From contig OZ251459.1 of NCBI GenBank assembly GCA_965242525.1, forward strand, positions 384,001 to 448,000: a stretch of DNA of 64,000 nucleotides, written 5' to 3'. How positions within the stretch are numbered: position 1 is the first letter of the stretch; each line of letters opens with the position of its first letter. This document shows, in pieces, positions 39,052-55,457 of the stretch. A program made the translations under genes and the position numbers. The DNA is from an uncultured Candidatus Binatia bacterium. Its GTDB lineage: Bacteria > Desulfobacterota > Binatia > UBA9968 > JAJDTQ01. Under the pieces are notes generated by a model that was not told the DNA's origin, searched no databases, and saw nothing but the letters and a program-made list of their open reading frames with translations.

Positions 39052-40050
39052 TCACCGTACCCGCCGTCCACGCGCGGTGAGCCGGTATTTCTGGTTCCTG
39101 TGGGTGGGGGATTCCGGATGGGTCATCTCCACCAGCCCCGCGGACATGGCCGGACCCAGGTAGTTCTTGCGGAACGTGGGACGATGGGACAGCCCCATGT
39201 CCGCCATGAGTCGAGCCGCGGTCTTCGGGCCTTTCCGCAAGGCCGCGAGCAGCCGTGCTTCCTGGTCGCTTACCTGGTCGCTTGCTTGGTCGCTCGGCGT
39301 GGGGACCCGCAAGGCCTCGAGGATGGTTTCCAGCATGAACTCGATGAACCGCGTGCTCTCGCCGTCCGCCGAACTTTGCCGGATGGCCTCATAGTAGTCG
39401 TGTTGGCGTGCGTGGACCAGGCTCTCCACCGGGACGTCGGCGAACAGCGCCTTCCATCGGGTCAGGATCACGGTCTGCCAGAGTCGTCCCATCCGCCCGT
39501 TGCCGTCCTCGAAAGGGTGGATGAACTCCAACTCGTAGTGGAAGACCGAACTGGCGATGAGCGGATGCTCGTCGGCGCCGTCCAGCCACGTCAAGAGGCC
39601 GGCCATGAGCTCCGGCGCCCGCTCTGCGGGCGGGCCTATGTGGTGGACTTGGCCGGCGCCCATGACGCCTACGTTGGTACGACGGTATCGTCCCGGGGCG
39701 TCCAGCAGTCCGGTCATCAATATCCGGTGGGCGTGCAGAAGGTCGGCTTCGCTGGCCGGGTTCCAGTTCCGATATCGATCGTAGGCATGGATGGCGTTGC
39801 GGGCTTCCTGCACGTCCTTCGGCGGGGCGATGACGGGCTTGCCGTCCAGGATCGTCGAAACCTGCTGCTCGCTGAGGATGTTGCCTTCGATGGCCAGTGA
39901 GCCGTGAACCGTACGGACGCGGTTGATTCGCCGCAAGCGCAAGTCCCGCGCCACGCCCGCGGCCTCCGCCTGGCCGATGGCTTCACCGATCTGCACGACG
40001 CGGGACAGGATGGCCGGCGTGATCGTGTATGGGGGTTTGTCGGAGGGCAT
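39052..40050 (-). CDS. Fic family protein with a C-terminal HTH
   Basis: SLAIEGN inhibitory-helix motif; HPFEDGNGRMGR Fic motif. Confidence 0.93.
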   Translation of the reverse strand: MPSDKPPYTITPAILSRVVQIGEAIGQAEAAGVARDLRLRRINRVRTVHGSLAIEGNILSEQQVSTILDGKPVIAPPKDVQEARNAIHAYDRYRNWNPASEADLLHAHRILMTGLLDAPGRYRRTNVGVMGAGQVHHIGPPAERAPELMAGLLTWLDGADEHPLIASSVFHYELEFIHPFEDGNGRMGRLWQTVILTRWKALFADVPVESLVHARQHDYYEAIRQSSADGESTRFIEFMLETILEALRVPTPSDQASDQVSDQEARLLAALRKGPKTAARLMADMGLSHRPTFRKNYLGPAMSAGLVEMTHPESPTHRNQKYRLTARGRRVR

Positions 40051-40135
40051 GGCGGTCGGTTGCCGTTCAGCGGCGTCCTGCCTTGGACCAATTCTCCAGA
40101 TGGACTTTGCCATGCCTGGGGACTAAAATCACCCC

Positions 40136-40470: not shown

Positions 40471-41328
40471 CTACCCTGCCCTCTGCTGTGGCCCTGGACC
40501 CCGTGTGTCCCAGATCGGAATTGACGTACCGTCGCTACGCCAGCACCGTCGCTCCGACAACTCCTGTGCCACATAGGGCATCAGCGCCTGTCGCGTCCGT
40601 ACCAACAGCTTGCCAGTGTTGGCAATGCCGTATTCGTGCTCGTAGCAAAGCCTTTCCTCTTGGGACAATCCCGGCCACAACAAAAAAGTCCGTTTCTCGA
40701 AGGTGTGCCAGTCGCTGTCGTCTTCCAGGTCAACGAAAGGAAAGTCCCCTCTTGGCCAAGCCTCAAACGCACGAGCAGGAACCACATCGACGTAGCGGTC
40801 GTCCAGTCGATTGCCCAAGGCGTCGCGTCCCTCTGCCCGGTATCCTCTCAGGTGATACCGTCCACGGGATCGGACGACAGCGGACGGGCAAAAGACGAAA
40901 TCCTGGCGTCCCGTCTTCGCCGCATAGATCAGGCTCACGGCTTGCCGTTCCAGGCAAGCAGCGAGGATTACACGAACGGAGCGAGACCGAGTTGACGCGG
41001 AGAGGGACGTGTCGTGCCCGCCTCCGTGCGGCGCTGTCATGGAAAACGGGTTTCCAGGCAGGCAATCCGCTGTCAGAAGCAGGAAAAGGGCGGTATTGGG
41101 ATCGGTCACCGATGGTCCGGGATCGAATTCCTCGACAGGAACGAGACAGCGCTCAGCACCCGGTCGGTAGCGTGGCAAGATTCCGGCGTCCCGCCAATCG
41201 GAGATCAGGCTGCGTGCCGTGCGCTCGGAAACGCCCAGAAAGTCCTGAATTTCCCTTGCTCGAAGGTGACCACGCCAAAACAACATCATCTCGGCGAAGT
41301 AGCGAGCAATTTTCCGGTCAAGATCCAT
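40471..41328 (-). CDS. wHTH-WYL transcriptional regulator (CapW/BrxR-like), divergent from the cas operon
   Basis: LFWRGHLRAREIQDFLGVSERTA wHTH; AVSLIY...FCPSAVVRSRGRYHLRGY WYL core. Confidence 0.82.
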   Translation of the reverse strand: MDLDRKIARYFAEMMLFWRGHLRAREIQDFLGVSERTARSLISDWRDAGILPRYRPGAERCLVPVEEFDPGPSVTDPNTALFLLLTADCLPGNPFSMTAPHGGGHDTSLSASTRSRSVRVILAACLERQAVSLIYAAKTGRQDFVFCPSAVVRSRGRYHLRGYRAEGRDALGNRLDDRYVDVVPARAFEAWPRGDFPFVDLEDDSDWHTFEKRTFLLWPGLSQEERLCYEHEYGIANTGKLLVRTRQALMPYVAQELSERRCWRSDGTSIPIWDTRGPGPQQRAG

Positions 41329-41352
41329 TGCAGATCAGATTATATCTTGCCC

Positions 41353-41375
41353 TGCAATTATTGCAAGTTGCAATA
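41353..41375. promoter_or_regulatory. Overlapping palindromes, candidate WYL-regulator operator
   Basis: TGCAAT-T-ATTGCA (41353-41365) and TATTGCAA-G-TTGCAATA (41359-41375) in the AT-rich 100-bp divergent promoter region. Confidence 0.65.
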
Positions 41376-41428
41376 GCTCAGGGATGGTGTTATCCGTTAT
41401 CCTAGTACCGCTTATTGGAGAGTCGTCT

Positions 41429-42157
41429 ATGAGGATCAGACTTTCAGCACCGCGGGGCGAATACGCTCTGTTTCACTTTCTGGACAGCCTGCACGCTTCG
41501 CTGGTCAATGCCTGGACATCCTGCGGCGCCCGCACGGTGGACGTTATCGGGCGTGAGGCTGGCAACTGGTCCTTCGGCGCCGTAGGTAAGGCGACGGCCA
41601 AGGGTTTTCTTCTGAAGTCTGTGGTTGTGGGAGCCGAGGGGGACCCACTTGAGTCCATTTTACCCCAGATGGTCCCCGATATGGTACGAAAGTCGTCAAC
41701 CAACGGCGATGTGGTGGACCTGTCTGCATGGGACCGCGTTGTCGATGAGCTTCCCGTAGTCTGCAGGCCAAGGGAGAACGCCGTGCTTCCGGCCATCATG
41801 CTCTCGCCACTGGCCGTGTCCGTAAGTGGCCGAAAGGGACGCTGGCACGACGACCTGAGCAAAGCGGGGACGGATCTGGAGGAGGCGGTCAACTTCCGCC
41901 TGTCACGTCTGACTAGCCGGCATGTGCGCCTGACGATCGAGCCTGACCGGTTGTACCTCCGAGCCAATCCAAAGCACTCGACTTTGGTCCGCACGCGGGC
42001 GGTCCGAGGAGCCAAGCCAGCGTTCGTGATCGGCATGCTGTGCCCGCTGCTCATCAGCGGCCGGCTCGAAGACGTGCGTTCGGCCTGGGCGCTCGGGATC
42101 GGAGAGAAGAACCGCTACGGTTTCGGCTGCATAGGACATGCCGGAGGAGCCGTATGA
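41429..42157 (+). CDS. cas6: CRISPR-associated endoribonuclease Cas6
   Basis: C-terminal G-loop GIGEKNRYGFGCI; first gene of the cas operon. Confidence 0.88.
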   Translation: MRIRLSAPRGEYALFHFLDSLHASLVNAWTSCGARTVDVIGREAGNWSFGAVGKATAKGFLLKSVVVGAEGDPLESILPQMVPDMVRKSSTNGDVVDLSAWDRVVDELPVVCRPRENAVLPAIMLSPLAVSVSGRKGRWHDDLSKAGTDLEEAVNFRLSRLTSRHVRLTIEPDRLYLRANPKHSTLVRTRAVRGAKPAFVIGMLCPLLISGRLEDVRSAWALGIGEKNRYGFGCIGHAGGAV

Positions 42158-45090
42158 GCATCCGGCCCCAGGACTTCGCCCACAAAACGGCCGTCGAAGT
42201 GTACGGCGCGTTTCTCGACGAGTGCGTCGTCGCATGCGTCGGAAGGGACCGGGTAGGTCAGCTAGGCAAGTCCTCAACCGGCAAGATCGACGGCCGTCCG
42301 GTGCGTTTGGTTACGATCAGCGGCAAGGGGGGATGGACTGACGATCCGATCTTGGCAGAGCGCTGGGAGAAGAACGACAACATCAGTTTGTTGGACCATC
42401 TGCTGTCCGTGGCTCGTGGCGCGCTCATGTTCTGGTTGGCCGATGCTCCTCGTCCGTGGTCGAACGAGGCCGATCTCGCCGAGATGCATCGAACCGCACA
42501 CGCCGTAGTGTGCATCGCCTTCCTTCATGATATCGACAAGGACTTGGAATTGCGGCGTGGGACGGAGATCACCGTTGCCCATGTGGCTGAACGTATGCGC
42601 CGCTACGGGATCGACGAGTTTCTGACGAAACGGGGAATCCGTATCTCCCAGGACGCGATGCTCAACTATATCGAGGAGGTCGAAGGTACACAGGCTGCCA
42701 GAAGTCCTGCCGCGCCGGACTACAACTCGCGAATTGCCGCTACATGCCGCTACATCGAGTTGGCCGACAAGCTGGAGGGAAAGTTTACCAGCCGGGAGCC
42801 GGGCGCGGGCGTTGACGGAGTGATCGCTTCGCTAGGCGATGCCAATCGCTGGCCTGTGCTGAGGGACCCATCGCTGAAACAGTGGGACAAGGTGGAGATC
42901 CACGACCACTTGCACGTCTTCCTGCTGGATCGCTTCCAGCGTGCGCTGTCCACTACCTGCAAGGCCCTCACCGGCCGGCTACCCCTCATTGAAACAGTGC
43001 ATGACGGAAGGCTGTTGTGCGTGGTCCCGCGGGAGCAGGCCGGCAGCATCAAGGCGCAAGCTCTCGACGACTTCCTCGGCGATCTTCCGTACGGCCTCGA
43101 TTTCTCGGTCAACAACCGCTTGGCCTGCGGGTTCGTTGGCGGCAGGGCATCGTGGGACGAGTGCCGTGCCGTGATGCAACGTACGGGCAATTGGCAGAAG
43201 TTCATGAACCTGCTGGCCCTCCCAAGATCCTATGCACAGGCACATACCCGAGACATAGATGATCTGTTCTCCCGGGCCGGGATGGAGACGTCGTGGAGTC
43301 CGCTTGACGACGGCTCCAGCGCCACGGTGAAGCCTGCGCTCGATCATCCTGGAGGTGACTCCCGTGATCTGGACATGGACCCGGCGCATGCCCTTGTGTT
43401 CCTTACGATGGCGCTCAACCACGCGGACGCCAAAGGCAGGTCGGCTGCACCGGAGGCCGGCGTGCGAGAGCAGGAACTCCTGCATCTGCTGAAGGACCAG
43501 GGAATGGAGCCGCCATCGGTCGTCACCCAAGCACCCGTTGGTGACGGTCGCGCGCGTCGCGTCCTGACAGCGCTGTGGACTATCGCTGAAGTGTGGCGGC
43601 TGGCCGAGGAAGATCCAGGCGGGGCCCAGGAACTCATCGGTCGTATCGTTGGCCGCTCAGGTCTGGTTGGACTCTGGCTGGATGGCAACGCCAACCGTAC
43701 TGGTATCGCAAACCAGATCCAAGATGTGTCCAGCGACATCCTCAACGCTCTGCGCCTGCGTTTTTCAGCCTATCTTACCGAAGGTGCGACAAACCCGTTC
43801 GATGGCGATGCGGCTGTCAAGCGTTGTATTCTGTGTAATGAGCCTGTCAGTGCTTTGCGCAACGTCAGCACCGCGTCGCGAGCGCACGGCGTCAAGGTAA
43901 CGGCATTCTCCGGCCGGGATAGGCGCAACGACCATCTGGCGTCACCGTCCGGTGACACGCACTTGTGTCCGGTCTGCCTGGCTGAATTGCAGTTGCGTAA
44001 GCACGTGCAGGAAGAATTCAAGGGTGGAGGCGACCTGCCTCCGCTCATTTCCTCACCAGGCATCAGCGGGCTCTTCGGTGGCCTTGCGTTTCAGCAGGAA
44101 GACCAAGAGGTGGCCATGGGACTGAACGACCTCAAACGTCTGGACCTCAAAAAAGGAGCCGTATATGAAGGGCTCGACTGTCACACGAAGCGTATCCGCA
44201 TAGCGCGGCTTGAGGCCCTGCCGAACAAGGACGCCAAACTGGTCGCGCAGCTTTGCATGATTCTCAATGCGGTTCGGCGCCTGGGCCGTCCGATCCACGT
44301 CTTCCGTGGCTCGCCGCGCCGGCATCCGGCGATATTTCACTCCGACGCGCTGCCGATTTGGTTGGAGCATCTGCTCGACGGAGATTCTCTGCGTATCGAG
44401 CAGATCCCTGATGCCTTGTCCAGGCTGGAGATATTCGAGGGTTTGGCAGAGATGCCCGGTCTGGGAATCGAGTGGGCCAAACAGTTTGCCGATCCCGACC
44501 CGGTGGTCAGGCTCGGTGCGATCTGTGTTGCCTGGACGCTGGCGATAGATCGGCGAGGAGTTGGAGACCGGAAACATGACTGGCCGGATATCGAAGCCAG
44601 AACTCGCGAGCACGCGCTCGCGCTCATCAAAATCATCGGAGGTGAATCAGTGAACTTGAAGGACAGTCGAGATCCCCTGATTCGGCTTGCATGGCTCGCA
44701 AGCCGAATCCAGAAACGTCGCAGCACGCGCGATTCGACCAACAAACAACTCCTGTGTTGGAAGACTGCGCTCGACTTCTTTCCCGGTGCTGAACAGTCGG
44801 TGACCAAGGACGGCAACGCCTTGATCCTGGGACTGGCGGCGACGCTTGAGGAAGAGCTCACGCGCAAGAAGGACGCTGCTGCGAAGAAGCATCGTAACGA
44901 TCTGGCTCTGGGTGACGCATGCGTCGAGTTCGCACGCCATTTTGCGAACGAAGTCTGGATAAATGTTTTCAAATCCAGGGAGCCTGCGTCGCAGGTGCGG
45001 CGGCGAGCGGCTGCGATTTATCGCTTCGCTTTGTTGGAGACCTATCGCGAGCGAGGCATTCCTGAAGCGACAGACGACAACACCGATTAA
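42154..45090 (+). CDS. cas10d: Divergent Cas10d-like large subunit with an N-terminal HD nuclease
   Basis: 978 aa; GKGG...SLLDH...FLHDIDK HD motif; CILC/CPVC zinc finger; no GGDD; precedes cas7 and cas5; ATGA overlap with cas6. Confidence 0.78.
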   Translation: MSIRPQDFAHKTAVEVYGAFLDECVVACVGRDRVGQLGKSSTGKIDGRPVRLVTISGKGGWTDDPILAERWEKNDNISLLDHLLSVARGALMFWLADAPRPWSNEADLAEMHRTAHAVVCIAFLHDIDKDLELRRGTEITVAHVAERMRRYGIDEFLTKRGIRISQDAMLNYIEEVEGTQAARSPAAPDYNSRIAATCRYIELADKLEGKFTSREPGAGVDGVIASLGDANRWPVLRDPSLKQWDKVEIHDHLHVFLLDRFQRALSTTCKALTGRLPLIETVHDGRLLCVVPREQAGSIKAQALDDFLGDLPYGLDFSVNNRLACGFVGGRASWDECRAVMQRTGNWQKFMNLLALPRSYAQAHTRDIDDLFSRAGMETSWSPLDDGSSATVKPALDHPGGDSRDLDMDPAHALVFLTMALNHADAKGRSAAPEAGVREQELLHLLKDQGMEPPSVVTQAPVGDGRARRVLTALWTIAEVWRLAEEDPGGAQELIGRIVGRSGLVGLWLDGNANRTGIANQIQDVSSDILNALRLRFSAYLTEGATNPFDGDAAVKRCILCNEPVSALRNVSTASRAHGVKVTAFSGRDRRNDHLASPSGDTHLCPVCLAELQLRKHVQEEFKGGGDLPPLISSPGISGLFGGLAFQQEDQEVAMGLNDLKRLDLKKGAVYEGLDCHTKRIRIARLEALPNKDAKLVAQLCMILNAVRRLGRPIHVFRGSPRRHPAIFHSDALPIWLEHLLDGDSLRIEQIPDALSRLEIFEGLAEMPGLGIEWAKQFADPDPVVRLGAICVAWTLAIDRRGVGDRKHDWPDIEARTREHALALIKIIGGESVNLKDSRDPLIRLAWLASRIQKRRSTRDSTNKQLLCWKTALDFFPGAEQSVTKDGNALILGLAATLEEELTRKKDAAAKKHRNDLALGDACVEFARHFANEVWINVFKSREPASQVRRRAAAIYRFALLETYRERGIPEATDDNTD
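44650..45090 (+). CDS. cas11d: Predicted internally translated small subunit Cas11d (146 aa)
   Basis: GGAGGTGA at 44638-44645, with GGAGG 7 nt before an in-frame GTG at 44650; helical C-terminal domain. Confidence 0.7.
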   Translation: MNLKDSRDPLIRLAWLASRIQKRRSTRDSTNKQLLCWKTALDFFPGAEQSVTKDGNALILGLAATLEEELTRKKDAAAKKHRNDLALGDACVEFARHFANEVWINVFKSREPASQVRRRAAAIYRFALLETYRERGIPEATDDNTD

Positions 45091-45132
45091 CGACAATTCC
45101 TGACCGGCCGTCAGAAAGACAAGGAGGGGATA

Positions 45133-46137
45133 ATGATCGATAAGTTTATTCCATACCTCAACGAGGGAGACCTCGTTGAGGAAGTGGTCGCGGCGAACGG
45201 AAAAGATACTTACGTTATGCCGACTCGCCGCAACGCGGGACACGTCGCTCTCGCGCTGGTCCGCGAGATCACGGCGCCGACGGTTTTCCGTAACGCAGAG
45301 GAGGAAATCACGGACATCGAAGACCGTGACGGAGTGCGCCGGGTACGGGCGACTTCGAACAAGTTCAAGTTTGGCGAACGTGGCCGTGGCCTGCTGGTGC
45401 TCCGCGCCTGGAACGTTGGCGGCCGGTTGCCGCAGAACCGCACCGCGGTCGGCGACCGCATTTCGGTTCGTGACGCACTTGATCTGAACACCTTGGTATT
45501 CGGCGATTCAGCGATGTGGGGAACTCGCGTGCTTTCGGTGAAAGCCGCGGTGCAGTACTCCGACGCACTGAGCACAGTGCCGTACCGCGATGCCGTGGGC
45601 GAGAGCTTCCACCACCGCGGCGACGAAACTGGAACACTCTGGGATGCAGAGAACAAGAAGAACACAGAGAACCTGTTCACCCGCCACTTCGTGCTTCCCG
45701 GCACTCTCTTGTTGCAGGTTCTGACGAGCAACGGCCGCCAGCTTCCGCCTATTGGCCTCGATCACCTGTTGTTGAGCCTCGGCGTCGCCGGTTCCTATGG
45801 TGGACAGACCTCGGTCACCGGTGTTAACGTGCGCACCCATATCGCCGGCATCTTTGCCGCTCGTCTGGAAGTGCCGATATCTTCCCCTTACGAGTTGCTG
45901 CGACAATTGCCTGCTGATACTGATATGACGTCGGTAGGTGACTTGGCAGCGGCCGTCAGGCAGGTGATGTCGAGACAGTACCAGACCCACGCCGATACCG
46001 ATGAAGCGTGCGAATACCAGCGGCAACTCGTCGAAGCATTCGAGCGGGACGATCCGGATCTGAGAGGCCGATACCAGCATGCCTCTCCACGGATTGCCGA
46101 TCTGTTCGAGCAGCATTTCACACCGAAGAAGGCGTGA
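45133..46137 (+). CDS. cas7: Type I-D Cas7 (Csc2-like)
   Basis: LVREITAPTVFRN, KFKFGERGRGL, VFGDSA, YSDALS, HFVLPGT, YGGQTS; AAGGAGG RBS. Confidence 0.82.
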   Translation: MIDKFIPYLNEGDLVEEVVAANGKDTYVMPTRRNAGHVALALVREITAPTVFRNAEEEITDIEDRDGVRRVRATSNKFKFGERGRGLLVLRAWNVGGRLPQNRTAVGDRISVRDALDLNTLVFGDSAMWGTRVLSVKAAVQYSDALSTVPYRDAVGESFHHRGDETGTLWDAENKKNTENLFTRHFVLPGTLLLQVLTSNGRQLPPIGLDHLLLSLGVAGSYGGQTSVTGVNVRTHIAGIFAARLEVPISSPYELLRQLPADTDMTSVGDLAAAVRQVMSRQYQTHADTDEACEYQRQLVEAFERDDPDLRGRYQHASPRIADLFEQHFTPKKA

Positions 46138-46140
46138 CCG

Positions 46141-46800
46141 GTGGCCGAAGCCGTCTTCCCGTTCCAATTGACTGCGCTCACGCCGTGGGCATGGCATGGA
46201 CTCGCCGTTCCTTCGGGAACCGCAACACTCAACGATGTCGTGACCGATACGGCAGTGGCGTTCGGGACTGCATCGGCGCTTGGTATGATGCCGCGCTCGC
46301 CGTGTCTGCCATCGGCACCCGATTACCGTAACCACTTAGCCGCTTTGCCGTTCAAGACAACGCTGTTCCTCGGTCATGACAATCGACTGAATCGCCCGTT
46401 GGCCCGTCGCCTCAACCTGGATGCCGAGTGTGGCATGCCGAAGAGTGTGGAAGACGCACGGAAGAGAGGCAATATCAAGGACTACTACCATATCCAGGAA
46501 GTCAGTGTAGGCTCGGTCTTCCACGGCTCCTTCTTGCACGAAAACCCTCTGCGTGTTGCACATGATGCGTATGGAGAACCGATAGAAGCCTTGGTCATCA
46601 GGCTTGGAATTGGAAGAAACGGGGTTGGCATACTTGAACCTTGTGCGGACGGCTACGACATCTGTCTCAACTTGCATACCGCGCGGTTGTTCGATCCGGA
46701 TACCGACTTGCAGGCCGGGCCGTACCGTCTGCACACCATTCAACCCAGCCGGCCTGTCGAGCCAGACGTGGCGTTGAGCCTCACGGCTCGCTGGACATGA
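46141..46800 (+). CDS. cas5: Type I-D Cas5 (Csc1-like)
   Basis: 219 aa directly after cas7; C-terminal IRLGIGRNGVG G-loop. Confidence 0.7.
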   Translation: MAEAVFPFQLTALTPWAWHGLAVPSGTATLNDVVTDTAVAFGTASALGMMPRSPCLPSAPDYRNHLAALPFKTTLFLGHDNRLNRPLARRLNLDAECGMPKSVEDARKRGNIKDYYHIQEVSVGSVFHGSFLHENPLRVAHDAYGEPIEALVIRLGIGRNGVGILEPCADGYDICLNLHTARLFDPDTDLQAGPYRLHTIQPSRPVEPDVALSLTARWT

Positions 46801-48854
46801 TCATCAGAGCACACTCGATCCCGATGCTGCCCGCAGCCGGCCTGTCGCCGATGCAGGAGCGTCTGCTGCGTTCCGAGAAACCCGTACGGCTCGTGTCGGC
46901 GCCGACCGGCTCGGGCAAGTCCTACGCGTTCATGCGGGCAGTGCTCGACGAGGATGCGCGGGTGCTGTTCATCGTTCCAACCAAACGACTGCTGCAGAAC
47001 CTGATCAAGGGGGCTCGCGAGCAGGCAGGGGAGCGTCTTCGCAGGCGCGGTCTGGACGACACGCAGGTTCGCGACTGGATCGACGAACGGATTATCGAAT
47101 GGTCAGGGAACCAAGCCAGGGATGGACACGTGAACCTGTCGGGAACCAGGGTTCGGCAGTTCCTTGACGGCGGCGCGCATTCGGACGGCCAGGTTATCTT
47201 CGCCATACCCGAAGTGGTGGTGACGATGATATCCGGCATACGTCTCATGGGGGCTAGCGCTGTCAATCCCTTTCTTTACGTGCGCCGCTTCGACCACCTG
47301 GTCTTCGACGAATTCCACACCATCGACGATCGATCCTTCGGCTTAGCCTGCCTGTTCTCGCGCTTGGCGGTCATGGAACGGAGGGGAAAGGTGTCCCTTC
47401 TCTCCGCCACCCCGATTGATGTCACAAGGATACTCGAACGAACCGGAGTAGGACAGGAAAACACGGAGATGGTAGCTGAGCAGATTGTCGATGGACATGC
47501 ACCGGACCATCGACCTGTCCATGGCAACGTCGAGATTGAAGTACAGGACCGCTCTATCGTCGAATCCATCGAACTCAACCGCGACGCCGTACGTTCGTCG
47601 ATTACTCACGGGTTTACGGTCATCGTGATCTATGACCGGCTGAACCAACTCAAGCGGGAGGAAGATACAGTCCGTAGCACTCTGATAGATGCAGGCGTCT
47701 CCGACGACAAGATACTGACGATCAACTCCATCGACGACTCGAGAAGAAGGCCAGGGGAAACACGCCGCGGGCGAAAGTATGAGGATCCTGGCGAATATAA
47801 CGCATTGCTGTGCACCTCATCGGTTGAAGTCGGCGTCACCTTCCGCAGTACGCTCATGTTCACGGAACCCGGACACGGACTTGCCAGCTTCGTACAGCGC
47901 GTCGGCCGCGTCTCGCGTGGCGCCGACGCTGGCCGGGTGGTGGTGGTGTCGTTGTCGCGTCAGCGCCGCAATCGCGATTCCTGGGTCCGGCGGATCGGCG
48001 ATGTGGTCGAATCCCGCACGGAAGTGGACGTGCAGACGTTCGTTGATGAGATTCTGCGCGACGACCGGCGTCGTCTGGAGCCGACGCGAAAGGAAACGGA
48101 AGCGGATGTCGCTATGGTTGGCACCGACGTGCCCTTCTATCGTCGCGCTTCATGGCGCGGAGCATTCTGGGCAGCCTTGTTCGTCATTGCCGTACGGAGT
48201 ACGAAAATGGATGTACAGAAGGCAGCGCGTGACCGACTTCGAGGAATCTCTTCGGGCGTTATCAAATTCGTGGAGGCGAAGATCGATGAAATACGGTCAG
48301 TACACACCATAAATGACAACCTGCGGAACCATTCCCAGCCTCATAGACAATGGGTGAATGCATTGTTCACAAGTGCGCTGACTTACCGCGACATCGGCGC
48401 TACAGTCGTAGTCGCGGATCCTGACGGTACACGGTGCACGGTATCAGAGTCTTTTTTACGACGAGAGACGGACATCCTCAGCCGTTACATCGCGATCTGT
48501 GAGGATGGAGAACAGGTCGTCTATCTCAAGTCGCATACTTTGGACGACGAGATCAAGAGGAATCCCGAAGGACGAGAGGTTCAGCGGATGATGCTTTACG
48601 TGCCGTCACCTATCGGCGAAAGGGGTTTTTCCCTTCTGATTCGAGAACGTGATAAGGGTACCGAGCAACTCAACGTGCGTCTAATCGAAGAATGGCGGTA
48701 TCGCTTCTGTCGCTTCATCCCAGGACCGGAAGAAAAGGTGAACGATCCGCAGAAGAAGGTGATGGGAGCAGCCACTGCCCTGGTCGAGAAGCTCGGCCGT
48801 CCGCCTTTGGACGAGGATTATGAGGATTCTGGAAAAAGCGCGTTGTTTGCGTGA
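46797..48854 (+). CDS. cas3: Cas3' SF2 helicase without an HD domain
   Basis: APTGSGKS within the first 45 aa, VFDEFH, LSATP, TSSVEVGV, QRVGRVSR. Confidence 0.85.
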   Translation: MIIRAHSIPMLPAAGLSPMQERLLRSEKPVRLVSAPTGSGKSYAFMRAVLDEDARVLFIVPTKRLLQNLIKGAREQAGERLRRRGLDDTQVRDWIDERIIEWSGNQARDGHVNLSGTRVRQFLDGGAHSDGQVIFAIPEVVVTMISGIRLMGASAVNPFLYVRRFDHLVFDEFHTIDDRSFGLACLFSRLAVMERRGKVSLLSATPIDVTRILERTGVGQENTEMVAEQIVDGHAPDHRPVHGNVEIEVQDRSIVESIELNRDAVRSSITHGFTVIVIYDRLNQLKREEDTVRSTLIDAGVSDDKILTINSIDDSRRRPGETRRGRKYEDPGEYNALLCTSSVEVGVTFRSTLMFTEPGHGLASFVQRVGRVSRGADAGRVVVVSLSRQRRNRDSWVRRIGDVVESRTEVDVQTFVDEILRDDRRRLEPTRKETEADVAMVGTDVPFYRRASWRGAFWAALFVIAVRSTKMDVQKAARDRLRGISSGVIKFVEAKIDEIRSVHTINDNLRNHSQPHRQWVNALFTSALTYRDIGATVVVADPDGTRCTVSESFLRRETDILSRYIAICEDGEQVVYLKSHTLDDEIKRNPEGREVQRMMLYVPSPIGERGFSLLIRERDKGTEQLNVRLIEEWRYRFCRFIPGPEEKVNDPQKKVMGAATALVEKLGRPPLDEDYEDSGKSALFA

Positions 48855-49185
48855 ACTGGCCGAGAAGTTCGGTTTGCATGGCCTCTATTTCCAGCACGTG
48901 GCTTTGTGTCGCCGTCGTGCTTGGCTTCACTTGATGGGCGCCACACATGCTGCGGGCAACCAGCGAGTTCGTCGAGGGCTGGCGCTCCATCAGACCGAGA
49001 AGCATCCGAGCGAGGTGCCCATGGGCCTTGGCATCGCACCGGACGCTATCGACTTCGAACGGCGGACCGTGATCGAGAAGAAGGGAAGCGCCGGTGCACC
49101 CGATGCGGTGTCGCGTCAAGCGTTGTTTTACGCCGCGTTTATGACGGCGGCTACGGGGGAGGTTTGGCGTGCGGAGGTTCAGATA

Positions 49186-50289
49186 TTAAGGTTCTCAGAA
49201 TAGAAACCATTACAAGTTCGTATAACAAGTAGTGGGAGCATGGAAGAAGCTCCGTATCAAAGCAGGCAGTTGTTGCATCCGACGCAGGTGAGACATGGTC
49301 ATGGCTCGCAAGGTTTCCCGGGATGTGATCCGCTTGCGCCCCAACGCCTGGTTCTTCAAGTTGTTCCACACCAGTTCGTCCGGGTTGAGTTCCGGCGAGT
49401 ACGGCGGCAGGTAATGCAACTCGAGCATCCCTTCCTGTTCCTCCACGAAACGCCGCACCGACTTGGCCCGATGGACCGGGTGGCCGTCCACAATCAGGAA
49501 AATGGGAGAGGTCGCATTCACCATCAGGCGTCTGAGAAACCCGATGAACACCGGCGCCGTCACTCGCCCCGGAGTCACCATGAAGCGAAGATGCCCACGG
49601 GCGCTGATGGCAGAGATGAGGTTCGCCCCGAACCGCGCCCCCGTGCCCGACACCACCGGAGTATGCCCCCGAAGCCCCCAGGTCGTGCCCCAATGACTGT
49701 CCGAACGAACCCCCGCCTCGTCTCCGAAGAAGATCTGCGCCCCCACACGCTTCGCCCGGTCATGCAGCTTCGGGTATTCCTCCTCCCGCCAATGACGGGC
49801 CGCCTCCGGATCCTGTTGATAGGCACGCCAAACAGGACGCTGCACGCTCAATCCCATCTGCCCCAGCAACCGGCACACCGTACTGTGACTCAGCCGCACA
49901 CCCCATCGCCTGTCGATCAGCTCCTGCACCATCTTCGCCGTCCACAGCGCAAACGGAAACCGCAACTGCAACGGGTTCTTCTCCACCACCGTGTCATAAA
50001 CCCATTTCAGCGCCCTCGCATCCAGCTTCGGAGGCCGCCCTCCTCGCTTGCGGGCGTCCAGCTTCCCCCATCCCCCGCTGCGGTACAACGCCAACCAACG
50101 GAACACCGTGCGCAGGTTCACTCCCATGGCCGCCGCCACTTCTGTCGGCTTCGACCCCGCTTGCAGGCTCGCAATCCCGCGCCGGCGCAATTCCGTCAAG
50201 GTCCGATGATCCAGTTTTCGTCCGTCCGTGTTCATACCCGTTATCATACTATACTTCTGGTTCTATGGCAACTAAAATCGGACCCTTAA
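49186..50289 (-). mobile_element. IS630-family insertion sequence (1104 bp)
   Basis: TA duplicated at 49184-49185 and 50290-50291; imperfect TIRs TTAAGGTTCTCAGAATAGAAACCAT vs TTAAGGGTCCGATTTTAGTTGCCAT. Confidence 0.9.
49210..50247 (-). CDS. IS630 transposase
   Basis: N-terminal HTH, GGRPPKL, FGDEAG, VDGHPVH, LPPYSPELNPDE. Confidence 0.95.
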   Translation of the reverse strand: MITGMNTDGRKLDHRTLTELRRRGIASLQAGSKPTEVAAAMGVNLRTVFRWLALYRSGGWGKLDARKRGGRPPKLDARALKWVYDTVVEKNPLQLRFPFALWTAKMVQELIDRRWGVRLSHSTVCRLLGQMGLSVQRPVWRAYQQDPEAARHWREEEYPKLHDRAKRVGAQIFFGDEAGVRSDSHWGTTWGLRGHTPVVSGTGARFGANLISAISARGHLRFMVTPGRVTAPVFIGFLRRLMVNATSPIFLIVDGHPVHRAKSVRRFVEEQEGMLELHYLPPYSPELNPDELVWNNLKNQALGRKRITSRETLRAMTMSHLRRMQQLPALIRSFFHAPTTCYTNL

Positions 50290-50463
50290 TATATGGGTCG
50301 CGGAACCGGATCGAGCACAATCTGACGGAAGAGGTGCTTGATCGACTCGTGGAGGATGCCAGGGATAGTGCGAACTTGTTGGAGGGGTGTCCTCCGTCCG
50401 CTCATCGTATCCGCCTCTGCAACTCATGTAGTTGCCACCTTCTGTGCTGGGACGAGGAATGAA

Positions 50464-51432
50464 ATGGATGTTGTCATTATTCCGCGTGACGCACGGCTCA
50501 GTCGACACGAGAACGCGTTGGTCGTGACCTCCGACGCTGGGCGCAAGTCCATTCCGCTCAATGGCCTCAAGCACGTTCTGTGCATGGGCAACGGCTCCAT
50601 TTCCATTCGTCTGCTCAAGGACATGGGGCGACGAGGAATACGCTTCTCGGTACTCGATGCTGGAGGACGTTTCCTGGGCGCATTTGAGCCAGAGGAAGAG
50701 ACACCTTCCGGGAGGGTACGCATAGGACAGGCCAAATTGTTCCTGGACGAGGCGGAGCGTTTGCGTATTGCCAAGGCCATCGTAAGTGCACAGGCTCATT
50801 CAATGCGCGGTTTGTTGCAGCGCTACCGTCGCAACGGAACCTCCGGCTTGGAAGCCTCTCTGGACGGCATTGAGGATGCGATGGACGGCATAGAGAGGGC
50901 TGCCAGCCTGGACGAACTCATGGGTACCGAAGGACTGGTCCGAGCTTTCCTTCACGATGCTTTTGGGCGTATTACACAGGATGCCAGGCTGGAGCGGCGA
51001 GTCCGGCGGCCGCCCCCTGACCCGGTAAATTGTTTGATGTCCTTTTTCAACATGCTGCTCTATTCTGCATGTGCAAACGAATTGGCCAAGACTCACCTTG
51101 AACGAACTGTATCCTTTCTCCATTCACCCGGGACAGGAAGACGCTCCCTCTCGATCGACATGGCGGAAACGTTCAGGCCAGTTCTGTCCGATGCGCTTAT
51201 CTTGTCGGTTTTCCGACGTCGCCAAACAGACGATTCATGGTGGACCAGAGAGCCTGGCGTATGTCTGCTTAGCGAAAAAGGGAGAATGAAGGCTACGGAG
51301 CGCTTTTGGTCGCGCATCGAGGAACGCTACGGAAACGAGACGTTGCGTAAGGCCATTCACCGGCAATGTATGTCCTTGGAAAGGGATGCGCTTGGGATCG
51401 GACGATTCAAGCCGTTCATATGGCGAGGTTGA
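50464..51432 (+). CDS. cas1: CRISPR integrase Cas1 (type I-B-like sequence)
   Basis: LMGTEG, RRPPPDPVNCLMSF, SFLH, SLSIDMAETFRP. Confidence 0.93.
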   Translation: MDVVIIPRDARLSRHENALVVTSDAGRKSIPLNGLKHVLCMGNGSISIRLLKDMGRRGIRFSVLDAGGRFLGAFEPEEETPSGRVRIGQAKLFLDEAERLRIAKAIVSAQAHSMRGLLQRYRRNGTSGLEASLDGIEDAMDGIERAASLDELMGTEGLVRAFLHDAFGRITQDARLERRVRRPPPDPVNCLMSFFNMLLYSACANELAKTHLERTVSFLHSPGTGRRSLSIDMAETFRPVLSDALILSVFRRRQTDDSWWTREPGVCLLSEKGRMKATERFWSRIEERYGNETLRKAIHRQCMSLERDALGIGRFKPFIWRG

Positions 51433-51436
51433 GGTT

Positions 51437-51736
51437 GTGTTCGTAATGGTCTGCTACGACGTCCCTGCGAAGAGGACGGATCTGTACAAGAAACTGCTCA
51501 AGGAATTTCTTGTCCACGAACAGGCTTCAGTTTTCATGGGTGATATTTCAGAGTCGGATGTCATCAGGATGGTGGCGAAGATCGCGAAGATGATCGGGCC
51601 GGAAGATCGGGTACTGAAGGTTGTCTGCAAGAATCGACACAACGCTGAGGTATCCAGACTCAGCAAGGAGGCTCTCGGTGGTCAGATGCGCCAGGAGGAG
51701 GATGGTTGGCATGGCAAGAACTGGTCGTTGATTTGA
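51437..51736 (+). CDS. cas2: Cas2
   Basis: FVMVCYDV, EQASVFMG; directly after cas1. Confidence 0.92.
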   Translation: MFVMVCYDVPAKRTDLYKKLLKEFLVHEQASVFMGDISESDVIRMVAKIAKMIGPEDRVLKVVCKNRHNAEVSRLSKEALGGQMRQEEDGWHGKNWSLI

Positions 51737-51888
51737 ATCGCCAAAAGTGCGCCTGGGCACAAAACTATCCTCAGAGGGGTTCTCAGGCGCAGAATTGGCG
51801 TCCGAATGTGCCACAAATCCCATTCAACTACTCATCAAACCTCCCAGGGACTACACATCTGTTGTCTTCTGGTCTCCTGAAATAGAGG
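51737..51888 (+). promoter_or_regulatory. CRISPR leader
   Basis: Non-coding, lower-GC 152 bp between cas2 and the first perfect repeat; the opposite terminal repeat is mutated. Confidence 0.72.
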
Positions 51889-54800
51889 GTTCCCGATCCC
51901 CATGAGGGGTAATGAGGCCGAGCAGGAAGCCCTCGACGCGCGGGACGACGCCGTTCCCGATCCCCATGAGGGGTAATGAGCAAGTCAAAGAACACATGGG
52001 GCCACCAGTCCGACATTGTTCCCGATCCCCATGAGGGGTAATGAGGGTGTAAATGATACGCCCACGACCCCCGATCAACGGCACGAGTTCCCGATCCCCA
52101 TGAGGGGTAATGAGACCGTGGTGGTGGTCGCGTTCGCCGTGGGCGTGCTGAGTTCCCGATCCCCATGAGAGGTAATGAGTGGCAGTCGATCCGTGAGGCC
52201 CTGGGGGTGGACGCGCTGTTCCCGATCCCCATGAGGGGTAATGAGCCGCCCTACGGTATCGACTTCATCCGGGATGCCCTGAGTTCCCGATCCCCATGAG
52301 GGGTAATGAGACCTCAGCCCCTGATATGCTACCAGGAGCAGCGTGTGGTTCCCGATCCCCATGAGGGGTAATGAGGTATCAGGGCCGCGGCGGTGGGGCG
52401 GGAGGTCATCGAGTTCCCGATCCCCATGAGGGGTAATGAGAGGGGCCACCGCGTCTTGATCCACCGGCGCCGGCTGGGCGTTCCCGATCCCCATGAGGGG
52501 TAATGAGGTGATGCCGTCCGGTCGGTCGTCCTGGGTCCGTCCGAACGTTCCCGATCCCCATGAGGGGTAATGAGCGGCTATCGGGCACGCAGGGGGGGCA
52601 GGACGCCTTCAGTTCCCGATCCCCATGAGGGGTAATGAGCAGGTGCAGTGCGTGCGGATCAACGAGGACCGCTTCGGTTCCCGATCCCCATGAGGGGTAA
52701 TGAGTCCCCGACGCCCACGGGCGACGACCCGGAACTGTACAGTTCCCGATCCCCATGAGGGGTAATGAGCTGTGCGGATGGAGTTCTACAGGTCGGACAG
52801 GCTGGTTCCCGATCCCCATGAGGGGTAATGAGACGGGGGCGCCATCCTGCTCCGTGCGCACTACCAGTTCGTTCCCGATCCCCATGAGGGGTAATGAGTG
52901 GCATCAGGCGCCATGCATCCAGCCAGCACGTCTGCTGTTCCCGATCCCCATGAGGGGTAATGAGCAGATTGAGATTTGCCGCTTCTGTCGGAACGAGGTT
53001 GTTCCCGATCCCCATGAGGGGTAATGAGCCGCATGTCCCTGGTACGCGACTGTTGGACCACGAGTTGTTCCCGATCCCCATGAGGGGTAATGAGATTTGA
53101 AAGTGAATACGGGTGAGAGTGGGGTAATCCTGAGTTCCCGATCCCCATGAGGGGTAATGAGGACGCTTCAGGCGCCTGGTACGTCGCGGACGCCACCACG
53201 TTCCCGATCCCCATGAGGGGTAATGAGAAGCGGATGGAGAGCGCCTCCGCGGAGGTCGAGCGGGAGGTTCCCGATCCCCATGAGGGGTAATGAGGTCCAG
53301 TACGACGTCCCGGCCACCGGCGCCCTCGCCATGTTCCCGATCCCCATGAGGGGTAATGAGACGATCCCTGCGGACCAGTCGCGGCACAGGTCCCGGGTTC
53401 CCGATCCCCATGAGGGGTAATGAGTCGACAGTCCCGAGGCTCCCGTGCCTAGACCCGGTGAAGTTCCCGATCCCCATGAGGGGTAATGAGTGGATCTTCT
53501 CGGCCTGCGCCCCGGACTCCGCGTCCTGGTTCCCGATCCCCATGAGGGGTAATGAGACGGTGACCACGGCCTCCGTGACCAGGTAGAACCAGTAGTTCCC
53601 GATCCCCATGAGGGGTAATGAGGCCGGATACACCACAGGCAGGACGGAGGAGCCTCCGGCGTTCCCGATCCCCATGAGGGGTAATGAGGACATCTATGCG
53701 GCGAACCAGGAACAGGCGCGGGTCGTTCCCGATCCCCATGAGGGGTAATGAGGTGATCGTGTGGACGCTTCCGGGCTTGGACCCCTCGGTTCCCGATCCC
53801 CATGAGGGGTAATGAGATCACGCCGGAGGAGTTCGGCGCCCGGTTCAACCTGGTTCCCGATCCCCATGAGGGGTAATGAGTTCCATTGGCGGGACGACAC
53901 CGTTTTCATCTCGAACACCGTTCCCGATCCCCATGAGGGGTAATGAGAAACCCCAGGAAATCCCGGAAGCGATGCTGGAAGGGGCGTTCCCGATCCCCAT
54001 GAGGGGTAATGAGCACCAGTGCTTGACGCCTGCAACTTCCACCAGGCCCGCGTTCCCGATCCCCATGAGGGGTAATGAGGAGATGCTGGTCTCCGGGTCC
54101 ATCATCAACCATGCCAGTTCCCGATCCCCATGAGGGGTAATGAGAAGGAACTGTTGGGATACCCGCCTACGGCGCGGTTGAGTTCCCGATCCCCATGAGG
54201 GGTAATGAGTTCCATTGGCGGGACGACACCGTTTTCATCTCGAACACCGTTCCCGATCCCCATGAGGGGTAATGAGCTGTTGGTTGTGCTTTGGCGTGAG
54301 GTTTGGAAGGGCGGCCGGTTCCCGATCCCCATGAGGGGTAATGAGACGGCATCCACGACTCCGACCTGTGCGAACATGGAGCGTTCCCGATCCCCATGAG
54401 GGGTAATGAGACGGCATCCACGACTCCGACCTGTGCGAACATGGAGCGTTCCCGATCCCCATGAGGGGTAATGAGTGGACCTCGGCCCGGGTGACCTCCC
54501 CGTCCGCGTCCCGGTTCCCGATCCCCATGAGGGGTAATGAGACCTGGATCGGGCTGCTGCCCCAGCCGGCCGTGAAGGTTCCCGATCCCCATGAGGGGTA
54601 ATGAGCAGGCCACTACGGGCGTGGGTCCGCTCAGGCCCAGGCGTTCCCGATCCCCATGAGGGGTAATGAGTGGACGAGGTCACGGCGGCAGCGGCGACGA
54701 CGATGGACACGTTCCCGATCCCCATGAGGGGTAATGAGCCGCTAACTCCAGCCCTGCTTCCGACGCGATAATCAAGGGTTCCCGATCCCCATGAGGGGTA

Positions 54801-55457
54801 ATGAGAGTCACATCAGGCAGGCGGTGAGCAACGCGGCCGGGGAGGTTCCCGATCCCCATGAGGGGTAATGAGTGGCTAAGTCTCGTCCACCGCGGCCCTG
54901 ACTGCCTCGTTCCCGATCCCCATGAGGGGTAATGAGTGCCGCTGGAGGCCGCGGATGACCGCGACCCTGTCCGGTTCCCGATCCCCATGAGGGGTAATGA
55001 GAAGGCGCTGGTGTCCCGTCTCGGGGCGATGCCGCTGGTTCCCGATCCCCATGAGGGGTAATGAGAGCGAGAAGTCCATGGGCGAGACCGTCTGCGCGAT
55101 GGTTCCCGATCCCCATGAGGGGTAATGAGCTGGTGGGATCGACGTGGGCGGACACAGCGAGCCCGGGTTCCCGATCCCCATGAGGGGTAATGAGCTGGGC
55201 CTCGCGTCCGTGCCGCCGCCGTGGGAGCTGAGTTCCCGATCCCCATGAGGGGTAATGAGCTGGGCCTCGCGTCCGTGCCGCCGCCGTGGGAGCTGAGTTC
55301 CCGATCCCCATGAGGGGTAATGAGGTGGAGTCGATCACCCACTCGGGCGCGGGAGACGACGCCGGTTCCCGATCCCCATGAGGGGTAATGAGCGCGCTCA
55401 CGCGGGGGACGGCGTTTCCAGCCGCTGACGTTCCCGATCTCCATGAGGGGTAATGAG
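51889..55457 (+). CRISPR. CRISPR array: 55 repeats of GTTCCCGATCCCCATGAGGGGTAATGAG (28 bp) and 54 spacers of 35-41 bp
   Basis: Counted manually; CCCC-ATGA-GGGG hairpin; single mismatches in repeat 5 (starts 52152) and the last repeat (starts 55430). Confidence 0.98.

Follow-up and report, generated by a model that had tools for sequence, protein, structure and literature searches.

A CRISPR-Cas locus was analyzed computationally in a 64,000-nucleotide stretch of DNA (the window; contig OZ251459.1, positions 384,001 to 448,000) from an uncultured Candidatus Binatia bacterium. The locus comprises eight cas genes on the plus strand, in the order cas6-cas10d-cas7-cas5-cas3'-cas4-cas1-cas2, followed by a CRISPR array and preceded by a gene for a transcriptional regulator (Table 1). 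The cas4 gene is interrupted by an insertion sequence (IS). The results presented below indicate that this is very probably a genuine and mostly intact subtype I-D locus, acquired horizontally, that belongs to a non-cyanobacterial bacterial I-D lineage often borne on plasmids in Proteobacteria. It is not a new system but a new locus of a known, experimentally unstudied bacterial I-D lineage.

A preliminary description of the same DNA had given the genes from cas6 to the array in an order that agrees with that found on the plus strand, with the WYL regulator and the IS630 element left out. Position 40471, which had been taken as the start of cas6, is the end of the minus-strand regulator. The statements that cas6 is the first of the cas genes and that the repeat is 28 nt long were correct.

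Table 1. Features of the CRISPR-Cas locus and their positions in the window
Feature	Position	Strand	Description
HTH/WYL-domain transcriptional regulator (285 aa)	40471..41328	-	Divergent from cas6; Pfam HTH_28 27.5 bits (cut-off 25)
cas6 (Cas6d-type endoribonuclease, 242 aa)	41429..42157	+	Open reading frame opens at 41384; PADLOC Cas6d 220.4 bits, profile positions 2-235 of 241
cas10d, large subunit with N-terminal HD nuclease domain (978 aa)	42154..45090	+	PADLOC Cas10_Id 757 bits, profile positions 2-925 of 934
Candidate internal cas11d (small subunit) frame in cas10d	44650..45090	+	146 codons from GTG833 (or TTG835 at 44656)
cas7d (Csc2 family backbone subunit, 334 aa)	45133..46137	+	Pfam Csc2 42.6 bits (cut-off 25.5)
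cas5d (219 aa)	46141..46800	+	GTG start; PADLOC Cas5d 191.7 bits, profile positions 4-209 of 209
cas3' helicase, HD-less (685 aa)	46797..48854	+	ATG overlaps cas5 stop; PADLOC Cas3d 387.9 bits
cas4, N-terminal part	48820..49185	+	Frame enters the IS and stops at 49203; PADLOC Cas4d 116.6 bits, profile positions 9-126 of 181
IS630-family insertion sequence	49184..50291 (approx.)	-	Transposase 49210-50247, 345 aa; NCBIfam transpos_IS630 241.4 bits (cut-off 100)
cas4, C-terminal part	50289..50462	+	Cys cluster C-x2-C-x-C-x3-C
cas1 (322 aa)	50464..51432	+	Pfam Cas_Cas1 241.4 bits
cas2 (96 aa)	51446..51736	+	Pfam CRISPR_Cas2 49.6 bits
Putative leader	51737..51888	+	152 nt, from cas2 to the first repeat
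CRISPR array	51889..55457	+	55 repeats of 28 nt, 54 spacers (51 distinct)

Effector genes and assignment to subtype I-D

The PADLOC models that matched the large subunit were all Cas10_Id profiles. Because comparison of its sequence with solved structures failed, the protein was modelled with AlphaFold2, which gave a predicted local distance difference test (pLDDT) score of 88.5 and a predicted template-modelling score of 0.87. The five best matches of this model in a Foldseek search of the PDB were all Cas10d chains (7sba_I, E 1e-13; 6thh_C; 7sbb_I; 6yes_A; and 6yes_B), with E values from 1e-13 to 6e-5; E rose to 0.11 for the sixth match. In the VIA alignment, the Cas10d structures gave Z scores of 14.5 to 14.8 over residues 11 to 971, followed by the HD domain of SAMHD1 at 7.7. 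The structure-based identity to solved Cas10d proteins was 11 to 14%.

The N-terminal domain of the model aligned to HD hydrolases (SAMHD1 and YpgQ; Z, 6 to 7.7), and residues H82, H125, D126, K129, and D205 of this domain were invariant in all of the 50 relatives (18 to 60% identity) that made up the sequence profile of the protein. In our own reading, the H...HD...D succession appears to follow the order typical of type I. No GGDD motif was found in Cas10d of the window, and none is conserved among the relatives, two of which have one at unrelated positions; the cyclase palm is therefore predicted to be inactive.

The large subunit also has a CxxC...CxxC arrangement at residues 558 to 608 (C558/C561/C605/C608; positions 43825-43977). 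The preliminary description had called the protein an HD/zinc-finger subunit. Of the four Cys residues, only C558 is conserved in the family. C558 was invariant across the 50 relatives, and the other three sites were Cys in 0 to 3 of them and mostly Thr, Ser, or Ala. The four-Cys cluster is restricted to the sub-clade of the window locus and may represent a zinc site gained or retained only there.

The 3' part of cas10d may contain an internal gene for the small subunit. A GGAGG motif lies 7 nt 5' of GTG833, which is 146 codons ahead of the cas10d stop, and an in-frame start with a Shine-Dalgarno-like motif 146 to 167 codons before the stop was present in all six lineage loci. In 27 of the 50 relatives, the alignment column of L835 holds a Met. 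The C terminus of the Cas10d model matched the Cas11d chain 7sba_J (TM-score on the target, 0.64). Thus, Cas11d may be translated from a start within cas10d, which would fit the internal translation of Cas11d described for I-D in a preprint (bioRxiv 10.1101/2020.04.18.045682).

The remaining interference genes have full-length open frames, as does cas10d, and the profile matches of the effectors are full length. Cas6, which also matched Pfam Cas_Cas6_C (32.5 bits), scored just 24 bits with PADLOC Cas6b. Cas7 passed the NCBIfam cas_Csc2 cut-off (39.7 bits; cut-off, 38) and scored 52.8 bits with PADLOC Cas7d. Cas3' scored above the Pfam cut-offs for DEAD (50.7 bits) and ResIII (24.1 bits) and below that for Helicase_C (20.4 bits; cut-off, 23.5); it had no Pfam match to an HD domain. 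No Pfam match was found for Cas5.

The features that define subtype I-D, namely, a Cas10d fold, an HD domain carried by the large subunit, and an HD-less Cas3' helicase encoded separately, are all present, together with a Csc2-family Cas7 and a Cas5d-family Cas5, and the locus was assigned to I-D on this basis. The preliminary description had recognized the same architecture, and the profiles and the structure prediction bear it out.

Several observations weigh against this assignment. Membership in I-D rests on the predicted fold and on I-D-labelled profiles made by others; of the curated I-D cut-offs of NCBIfam, only that of Csc2 was passed. Neither Cas10d nor Cas5 matched any NCBIfam model, and Cas3' scored 54.4 bits with cas3_cyano, under the cut-off of 69.1. 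Cas10d had no match at E ≤ 1 among PDB sequences, either as a single protein or as a 50-sequence profile, and sequence searches of the PDB with Cas7, Cas5, and Cas3' found no Cas protein. The best fold matches of the Cas7 model were Cas7d (7sba_A; E, 4.4e-8) and Csc2 (4txd), which count as weak support due to the low confidence of the model (pLDDT, 57.7; shallow alignment of 20 sequences). Cas1 and Cas2 scored better with the I-B than with the I-D profiles of PADLOC (Cas1b, 231.8 versus Cas1d, 151.5 bits; Cas2b, 60.3 versus Cas2d, 29.4 bits), and this preference held in all of the three further lineage loci, in which Cas1b was again the best Cas1 profile. Furthermore, the activity of the locus is predicted from its genes. 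Two of the points made in the preliminary description, the distance of this locus from the cyanobacterial ones and the I-B-like character of Cas1, are borne out by the same comparisons.

Related loci and the origin of the adaptation genes

A search of plasmids with the window array led to three cultured Proteobacteria with related arrays, located on a plasmid of Paracoccus liaowanqingii (NZ_CP040759.1), plasmid p1318-7 of Roseomonas marmotae (NZ_CP061098.1), and plasmid pTfr153 of Thiothrix fructosivorans ATCC 49748 (NZ_CP072750.1). The Roseomonas and Thiothrix plasmids carry the whole cassette in identical order, and on the Paracoccus plasmid cas4-cas1-cas2 are lacking, but the regulator, the array, and all five interference genes are present. 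A metagenome-assembled genome (MAG) of the Pseudomonadales (OY761542.1) has the regulator and the eight genes in identical order, with 27 repeats that differ from those of the window by one base, which changes a C-G pair of the stem to U-G. The repeats of the relatives are all 28 nt long with a 3' end of GAG and a core close to TCCCCATGAGGGGT, which differs at one position in the Thiothrix and MAG repeats. Protein identities were 63 to 81% to the MAG and 26 to 53% to the three plasmid loci. Two more distant relatives (tblastn; 31 to 32% identity) also begin with cas6-cas10d-cas7. Other members of the lineage scored 820 to 1540 bits on the same Cas10_Id profiles, which were thus evidently built from this lineage.

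At 90% identity, the Cas10d family falls into 236 clusters (68 to 96% identical for the best 120), and 192 representatives at 50% identity were found at E ≤ 1e-3 among 1.84 billion proteins. The Cas7 family comprises 630 clusters. In a sample of the host phylum, the family was present in 2 of 401 genomes, the host included, and the phylum of the MAG gave the same figure (2 of 401, the MAG included). A scan of a collection of genome contigs with Cas10d yielded one locus from 21 candidate stretches. No stretch was recovered when JGI metagenome contigs were scanned for exact copies of the repeat with one degenerate position.

In RefSeq, PGAP labels Cas10d and Cas5d of the three plasmid loci "hypothetical protein" and Cas3' "DEAD/DEAH box helicase"; only Cas7 is named as type I-D. 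Loci of this kind therefore look new to readers and are easily misread as such. Such a lineage has, however, been noticed before: a 2023 review (PMC10212523) describes a Cas10d lineage of "predominantly other bacteria" in which the positions of cas3' and cas6 differ. No experimental work on the lineage was found in the literature searched, which excluded subscription journals and supplements.

The G+C content of the locus (53 to 62% over ∼40 to 55.5 kb) is lower than that of its flanks (67 to 72%). This low-G+C island and the plasmid location of the relatives are consistent with horizontal acquisition.

The preliminary description regarded the locus as a rearranged hybrid and the best candidate for a new system. 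It is conceivable that an I-D-like effector and an I-B adaptation module were brought together recently, with a change in gene order, or that the locus represents a new subtype. The gene order is that of I-B (cas6-large subunit-cas7-cas5-cas3-cas4-cas1-cas2), Cas1 and Cas2 match I-B profiles best, there is no match by sequence to I-D proteins of solved structure, the repeat has 28 nt compared to 37 nt in Synechocystis, and the protospacer-adjacent motif (PAM) is possibly not GTN. However, I-D-labelled profiles cover the effectors, Cas6, and Cas4 over their full length (apart from the cut that the IS makes in Cas4) and reach 820 to 1540 bits on other members; the large subunit, with its Cas10d fold and HD domain, is not a Cas8b; and PMC10212523 already includes a bacterial Cas10d lineage with variable positions of cas3' and cas6. 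In addition, the adaptation genes have diverged in step with the effector genes across three other loci. Identities to the MAG were 80% for Cas1, 67% for Cas2, 80% for Cas4, and 69% for Cas10d, and those to the Roseomonas and Thiothrix loci were 37 to 41%, 39 to 41%, 42 to 49%, and 32 to 35%, respectively, with Cas1b the best profile in 3/3 cases. It follows that the I-B-like adaptation genes are an old property shared across the lineage rather than a recent graft, and a new subtype or a recent hybrid seems very unlikely.

The preliminary description had also named findings that would tell against novelty. Of these, full-length matches to I-D profiles were obtained for the effectors, Cas6, and, apart from the cut by the IS, Cas4, and recurrence of the gene order and repeat family elsewhere was also observed, the order, regulator, and repeat family recurring in Proteobacteria; the third, a Cas1 that groups with I-D, was not, as Cas1 is nearer the I-B profiles. 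The consequences for classification are small, since typing profiles already call the locus I-D and the cassette is found in cultured Proteobacteria. The lineage is of modest interest as an independent test of which I-D features are general, such as an HD domain carried by Cas10d, a Cas11d of internal origin, and the PAM pocket.

The regulator is part of the conserved cassette. It scored 21.0 bits with Pfam WYL, just short of the cut-off of 21.8, and matched the CRISPR-associated WYL model PDLC01457 of PADLOC (E, 1.8e-7). Counterparts occupy the same position in the MAG (64.6% identity) and in Roseomonas (26.3%), where the gene is annotated just as "hypothetical," and are annotated in the Paracoccus and Thiothrix loci. 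An open reading frame of 353 aa on the minus strand (39052-40113) adjoins the regulator and contains the motif HPFEDGNGR, which we take to be the signature of a Fic domain.

The array, its targets, and the interrupted cas4 gene

The 28-nt repeat unit GTTCCCGATCCCCATGAGGGGTAATGAG is exact in 53 of the 55 copies, the other two having one mismatch each; it was not matched in 100 shuffles, and the array is the sole one with this repeat in the 4.23-Mb genome. Spacers are 35 to 41 nt long, with a mode of 37 nt. The array was read on the plus strand because the degenerate repeat is the last one (55430-55457, one mismatch) and because the 152-nt putative leader follows cas2. A 4-bp stem, CCCC/GGGG, is the only structure predicted for the repeat, which ends in GAG at its 3' end. 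The array, repeat length, and stem thus agree with the preliminary description, although the stem is no more stable than expected from shuffled sequence (z, -0.47). A search of Rfam over positions 51700 to 52400 returned only CRISPR-DR37, whose score of 22.1 bits was short of the 40-bit gathering score, and therefore no curated repeat family can be named.

Three spacers occur twice (53881-53919 and 54210-54248; 54346-54382 and 54411-54447; 55195-55231 and 55260-55296). Two of the pairs are adjacent and one is five units apart, which points to repeat-mediated duplication inside the array. In sequencing runs X3 and X5 (window positions 51900-53000), some contigs contained repeat-flanked stretches that, on visual inspection, had no apparent counterpart among the 54 spacers described here; these may be array variants in the population.

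In order to find the targets of the array, its spacers were compared with public phage and plasmid collections, in which no protospacers and only the three related arrays were found. The Thiothrix array matched only itself in these collections, and the MAG array gave nothing convincing in its own genome (best E, 0.03, overlapping a repeat). However, four spacers matched co-assembled contigs (C3 to C6): spacer 6 at 35 of 37 positions, spacer 33 at 32/38, spacer 18 at 31/38, and spacer 44 at 29/39, compared to a best match of 67% for shuffled spacers. A match of spacer 1 (26/36; flank, GGC) was set aside because it was too near this maximum. The four contigs (8 to 10 kb; G+C content, 64 to 66%) carry genes for a terminase large subunit, portal, S78 prohead protease, and capsid protein. 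They thus derive from a tailed phage and represent variants of a single head module.

On their 5' sides, the four protospacers are flanked by ATA, ATC, ATC, and AAA, with A at -3 in all four (background A, ∼17%) and T at -2 in three. In the spacers themselves there is an excess of G+C at positions +3 and +6, with G or C at +3 in 45 of the 51 distinct spacers. The same peaks were found in the MAG and Paracoccus arrays, but not in the AT-richer Thiothrix array; this periodicity resembles that of third codon positions kept in phase. In a phase test, it was asked which dinucleotide at -3/-2, in this genome, yields the first 12 bases of the spacers. With three background sets, the gain in log-likelihood was 14 to 19 nats for ATN, TAN, TTN, and AAN versus 0.4 to 3.1 for GTN (19.2 for ATN versus 1.4 for GTN). 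A W-W dinucleotide at -3/-2 thus accounted best for the periodicity. There was no such signal at the 3' end of the spacers (best, -0.3), and the MAG array gave a matching ranking (7.4 versus 3.2). These results suggest, tentatively, that the PAM of this clade is 5'-ATN/AWN rather than GTN, and the caution about the PAM expressed in the preliminary description looks justified. Points to the contrary are the small basis for the motif (four protospacers from one phage family, three with 6 to 10 mismatches) and the phase signal in other loci, which was ambiguous in Paracoccus and Roseomonas and absent in Thiothrix.

Another credible, if less probable, explanation is that the PAM is the 5'-GTN that is canonical for I-D and that A at -3 reflects G-to-A escape in the surviving phages. 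The three studied I-D systems all use GTN or GTH, according to a review and PMC7544194, and AAA is reported to have abolished binding in S. islandicus. The phage variants that supplied the protospacers persist alongside the host, three of the four protospacers are heavily mutated, and for the Paracoccus and Thiothrix loci GTN fits about as well as ATN. Escape accounts less readily for A at -3 in 4/4 flanks with T at -2 in 3/4, or for the phase signal, which is independent of the phage contigs and favors ATN, TAN, TTN, and AAN in the MAG as well.

If the A/T-type PAM is accepted, the lineage could be a functionally distinct I-D variant, characterized by this PAM, by a 28-nt repeat with a (G)UAAUGAG handle, and by a fixed adaptation module of I-B ancestry. 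We put forward this broader proposal with some reserve, as falling somewhat short of an even chance. An A/T-type PAM, if true, would widen the target range of I-D genome editors.

The IS630 element is inserted in cas4 at a TA. When the intact Cas4 of the MAG was used as a tblastn query, its residues 7 to 128 aligned to 48820-49185 (80% identity) and residues 128 to 184 to 50289-50459 (60% identity). Since the pieces meet at residue 128, the gene was split cleanly with nothing lost. The "short Cas4" of the preliminary description, offered as an I-B trait, is an artefact of this insertion; the PADLOC score was 116.6 bits with Cas4d compared to 31.6 with Cas4b. Three more copies of the element (49184-50291) that are 100% identical and one partial copy at 97% are present elsewhere on the chromosome, which indicates that it was recently active in this genome. 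Contigs of public runs X1, X3, and X4 bridged the left junction and those of X1 and X3 the right one. In none of the four runs was there a contig that joined across the IS, as in an intact cas4 allele, although contigs cannot prove the absence of such an allele.

In studied I-D systems, Cas4 serves in the choice of PAM-compatible spacers and not in interference, as stated in a review. By analogy, the split of cas4 has probably impaired PAM-selective spacer uptake. The 20 leader-proximal spacers (51917-53199) gave a poorer fit to the PAM-phase model than did the 34 older spacers (53228-55429); the contrast is marginal (permutation P of 0.045 in a scan over split points) and gives a hint of uptake after cas4 was broken. 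An IS-split cas4 beside an array with a graded PAM phase constitutes a small natural experiment on the role of Cas4 in spacer choice. A second CRISPR-Cas locus, of subtype I-G, is located at C1:752768-754480, ∼320 kb from the window; it encodes a Cas4g/Cas1g fusion (772.9 bits; cut-off, 560), an I-G Cas3-extension protein, and Cas2. Its intact Cas4-Cas1 could be relevant given the broken cas4 of the I-D locus.

The insertion might also mark the onset of degradation, in which case the locus would be a decaying, non-functional remnant whose array no longer protects. The contig with the spacer-6 protospacer (35/37) co-occurred with the host in all four runs, an observation that does not favor a functional locus; interference could be off, or the phages could be escape variants. 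Consistent with decay are this presence of the targeted phage family alongside the host in 4/4 runs, the disruption of cas4 by an element with three other identical genomic copies, the lack of an uninterrupted cas4 allele in the four runs, the three duplicated spacers, and the weaker leader-proximal phase signal. However, all genes besides cas4 are full length and match full-length profiles, 53 of the 55 repeats are identical, and the HD residues of Cas10d are intact. Moreover, the gene that was split is one that interference in studied I-D systems does not need, according to the review, and the surviving protospacers have 2 to 10 mismatches, as escape variants would have. Thus, it seems unlikely that the locus is a remnant, and a mostly intact I-D locus remains the preferred reading.

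Predicted function and comparison with known systems

A mechanism for the locus can be proposed by analogy with the studied I-D systems. Expression would be controlled by the WYL regulator. Cas6 would cut the 28-nt repeats at the CCCC/GGGG hairpin, leaving a 5' handle of 7 to 8 nt, (G)UAAUGAG, and Cas7d, Cas5d, Cas10d, and the internally translated Cas11d would assemble on the resulting CRISPR RNA with its spacer of ∼37 nt, in a stoichiometry probably close to that of Synechocystis, in which I-D spacers are ∼35 nt long according to a review. The complex is expected to read the PAM 5' of the protospacer, form an R-loop, and recruit the Cas3' helicase; the helicase would unwind the DNA, and the HD domain of Cas10d would cut it. 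With cas4 split, spacer uptake would lose its selectivity for the PAM. The array would then be a record of past encounters with the tailed phage whose fragments are found in the same assembly.

The locus can be compared with three groups of systems. Within its own lineage (Thiothrix, Roseomonas, Paracoccus, and the MAG), it is set apart by the IS630-split cas4. Compared to subtype I-B, with which it has in common the best-scoring profiles of Cas1 and Cas2, it has a Cas10d with an HD domain as large subunit instead of a Cas8b, and its Cas3 lacks an HD domain. Its Cas7, Cas5, Cas6, and Cas4 fit I-D profiles far better. Even for Cas1, the best of the NCBIfam subtype models, cas1_HMARI, scored 220.8 bits, under the curated I-B cut-off of 304.1, and cas1_CYANO scored 154.2 bits (cut-off, 385).

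The studied I-D systems are those of Synechocystis sp. PCC 6803 (7SBA and 7SBB), Microcystis aeruginosa, and Sulfolobus islandicus (6THH and 6YES). The preliminary description gave the cyanobacterial order as cas3' first and cas6 after cas5. The proteins of the window have no sequence-level match to the studied systems, and Cas1 and Cas2 are nearer the I-B profiles. The repeat of the window is 28 nt long with a 4-bp stem and a GAG end, whereas that of Synechocystis is 37 nt long, made up of handles of 8 and 29 nt according to a review. The PAM is tentatively ATN/AWN in the window, and GTN or GTH in the studied systems. Despite these differences, the locus shares with the studied systems the HD domain on a subunit with the Cas10d fold, the separate Cas3', the Csc2-type Cas7, the Cas11d-like C terminus with a candidate internal start, the WYL regulator, Cas4-Cas1-Cas2, and spacers of ∼35 to 37 nt.

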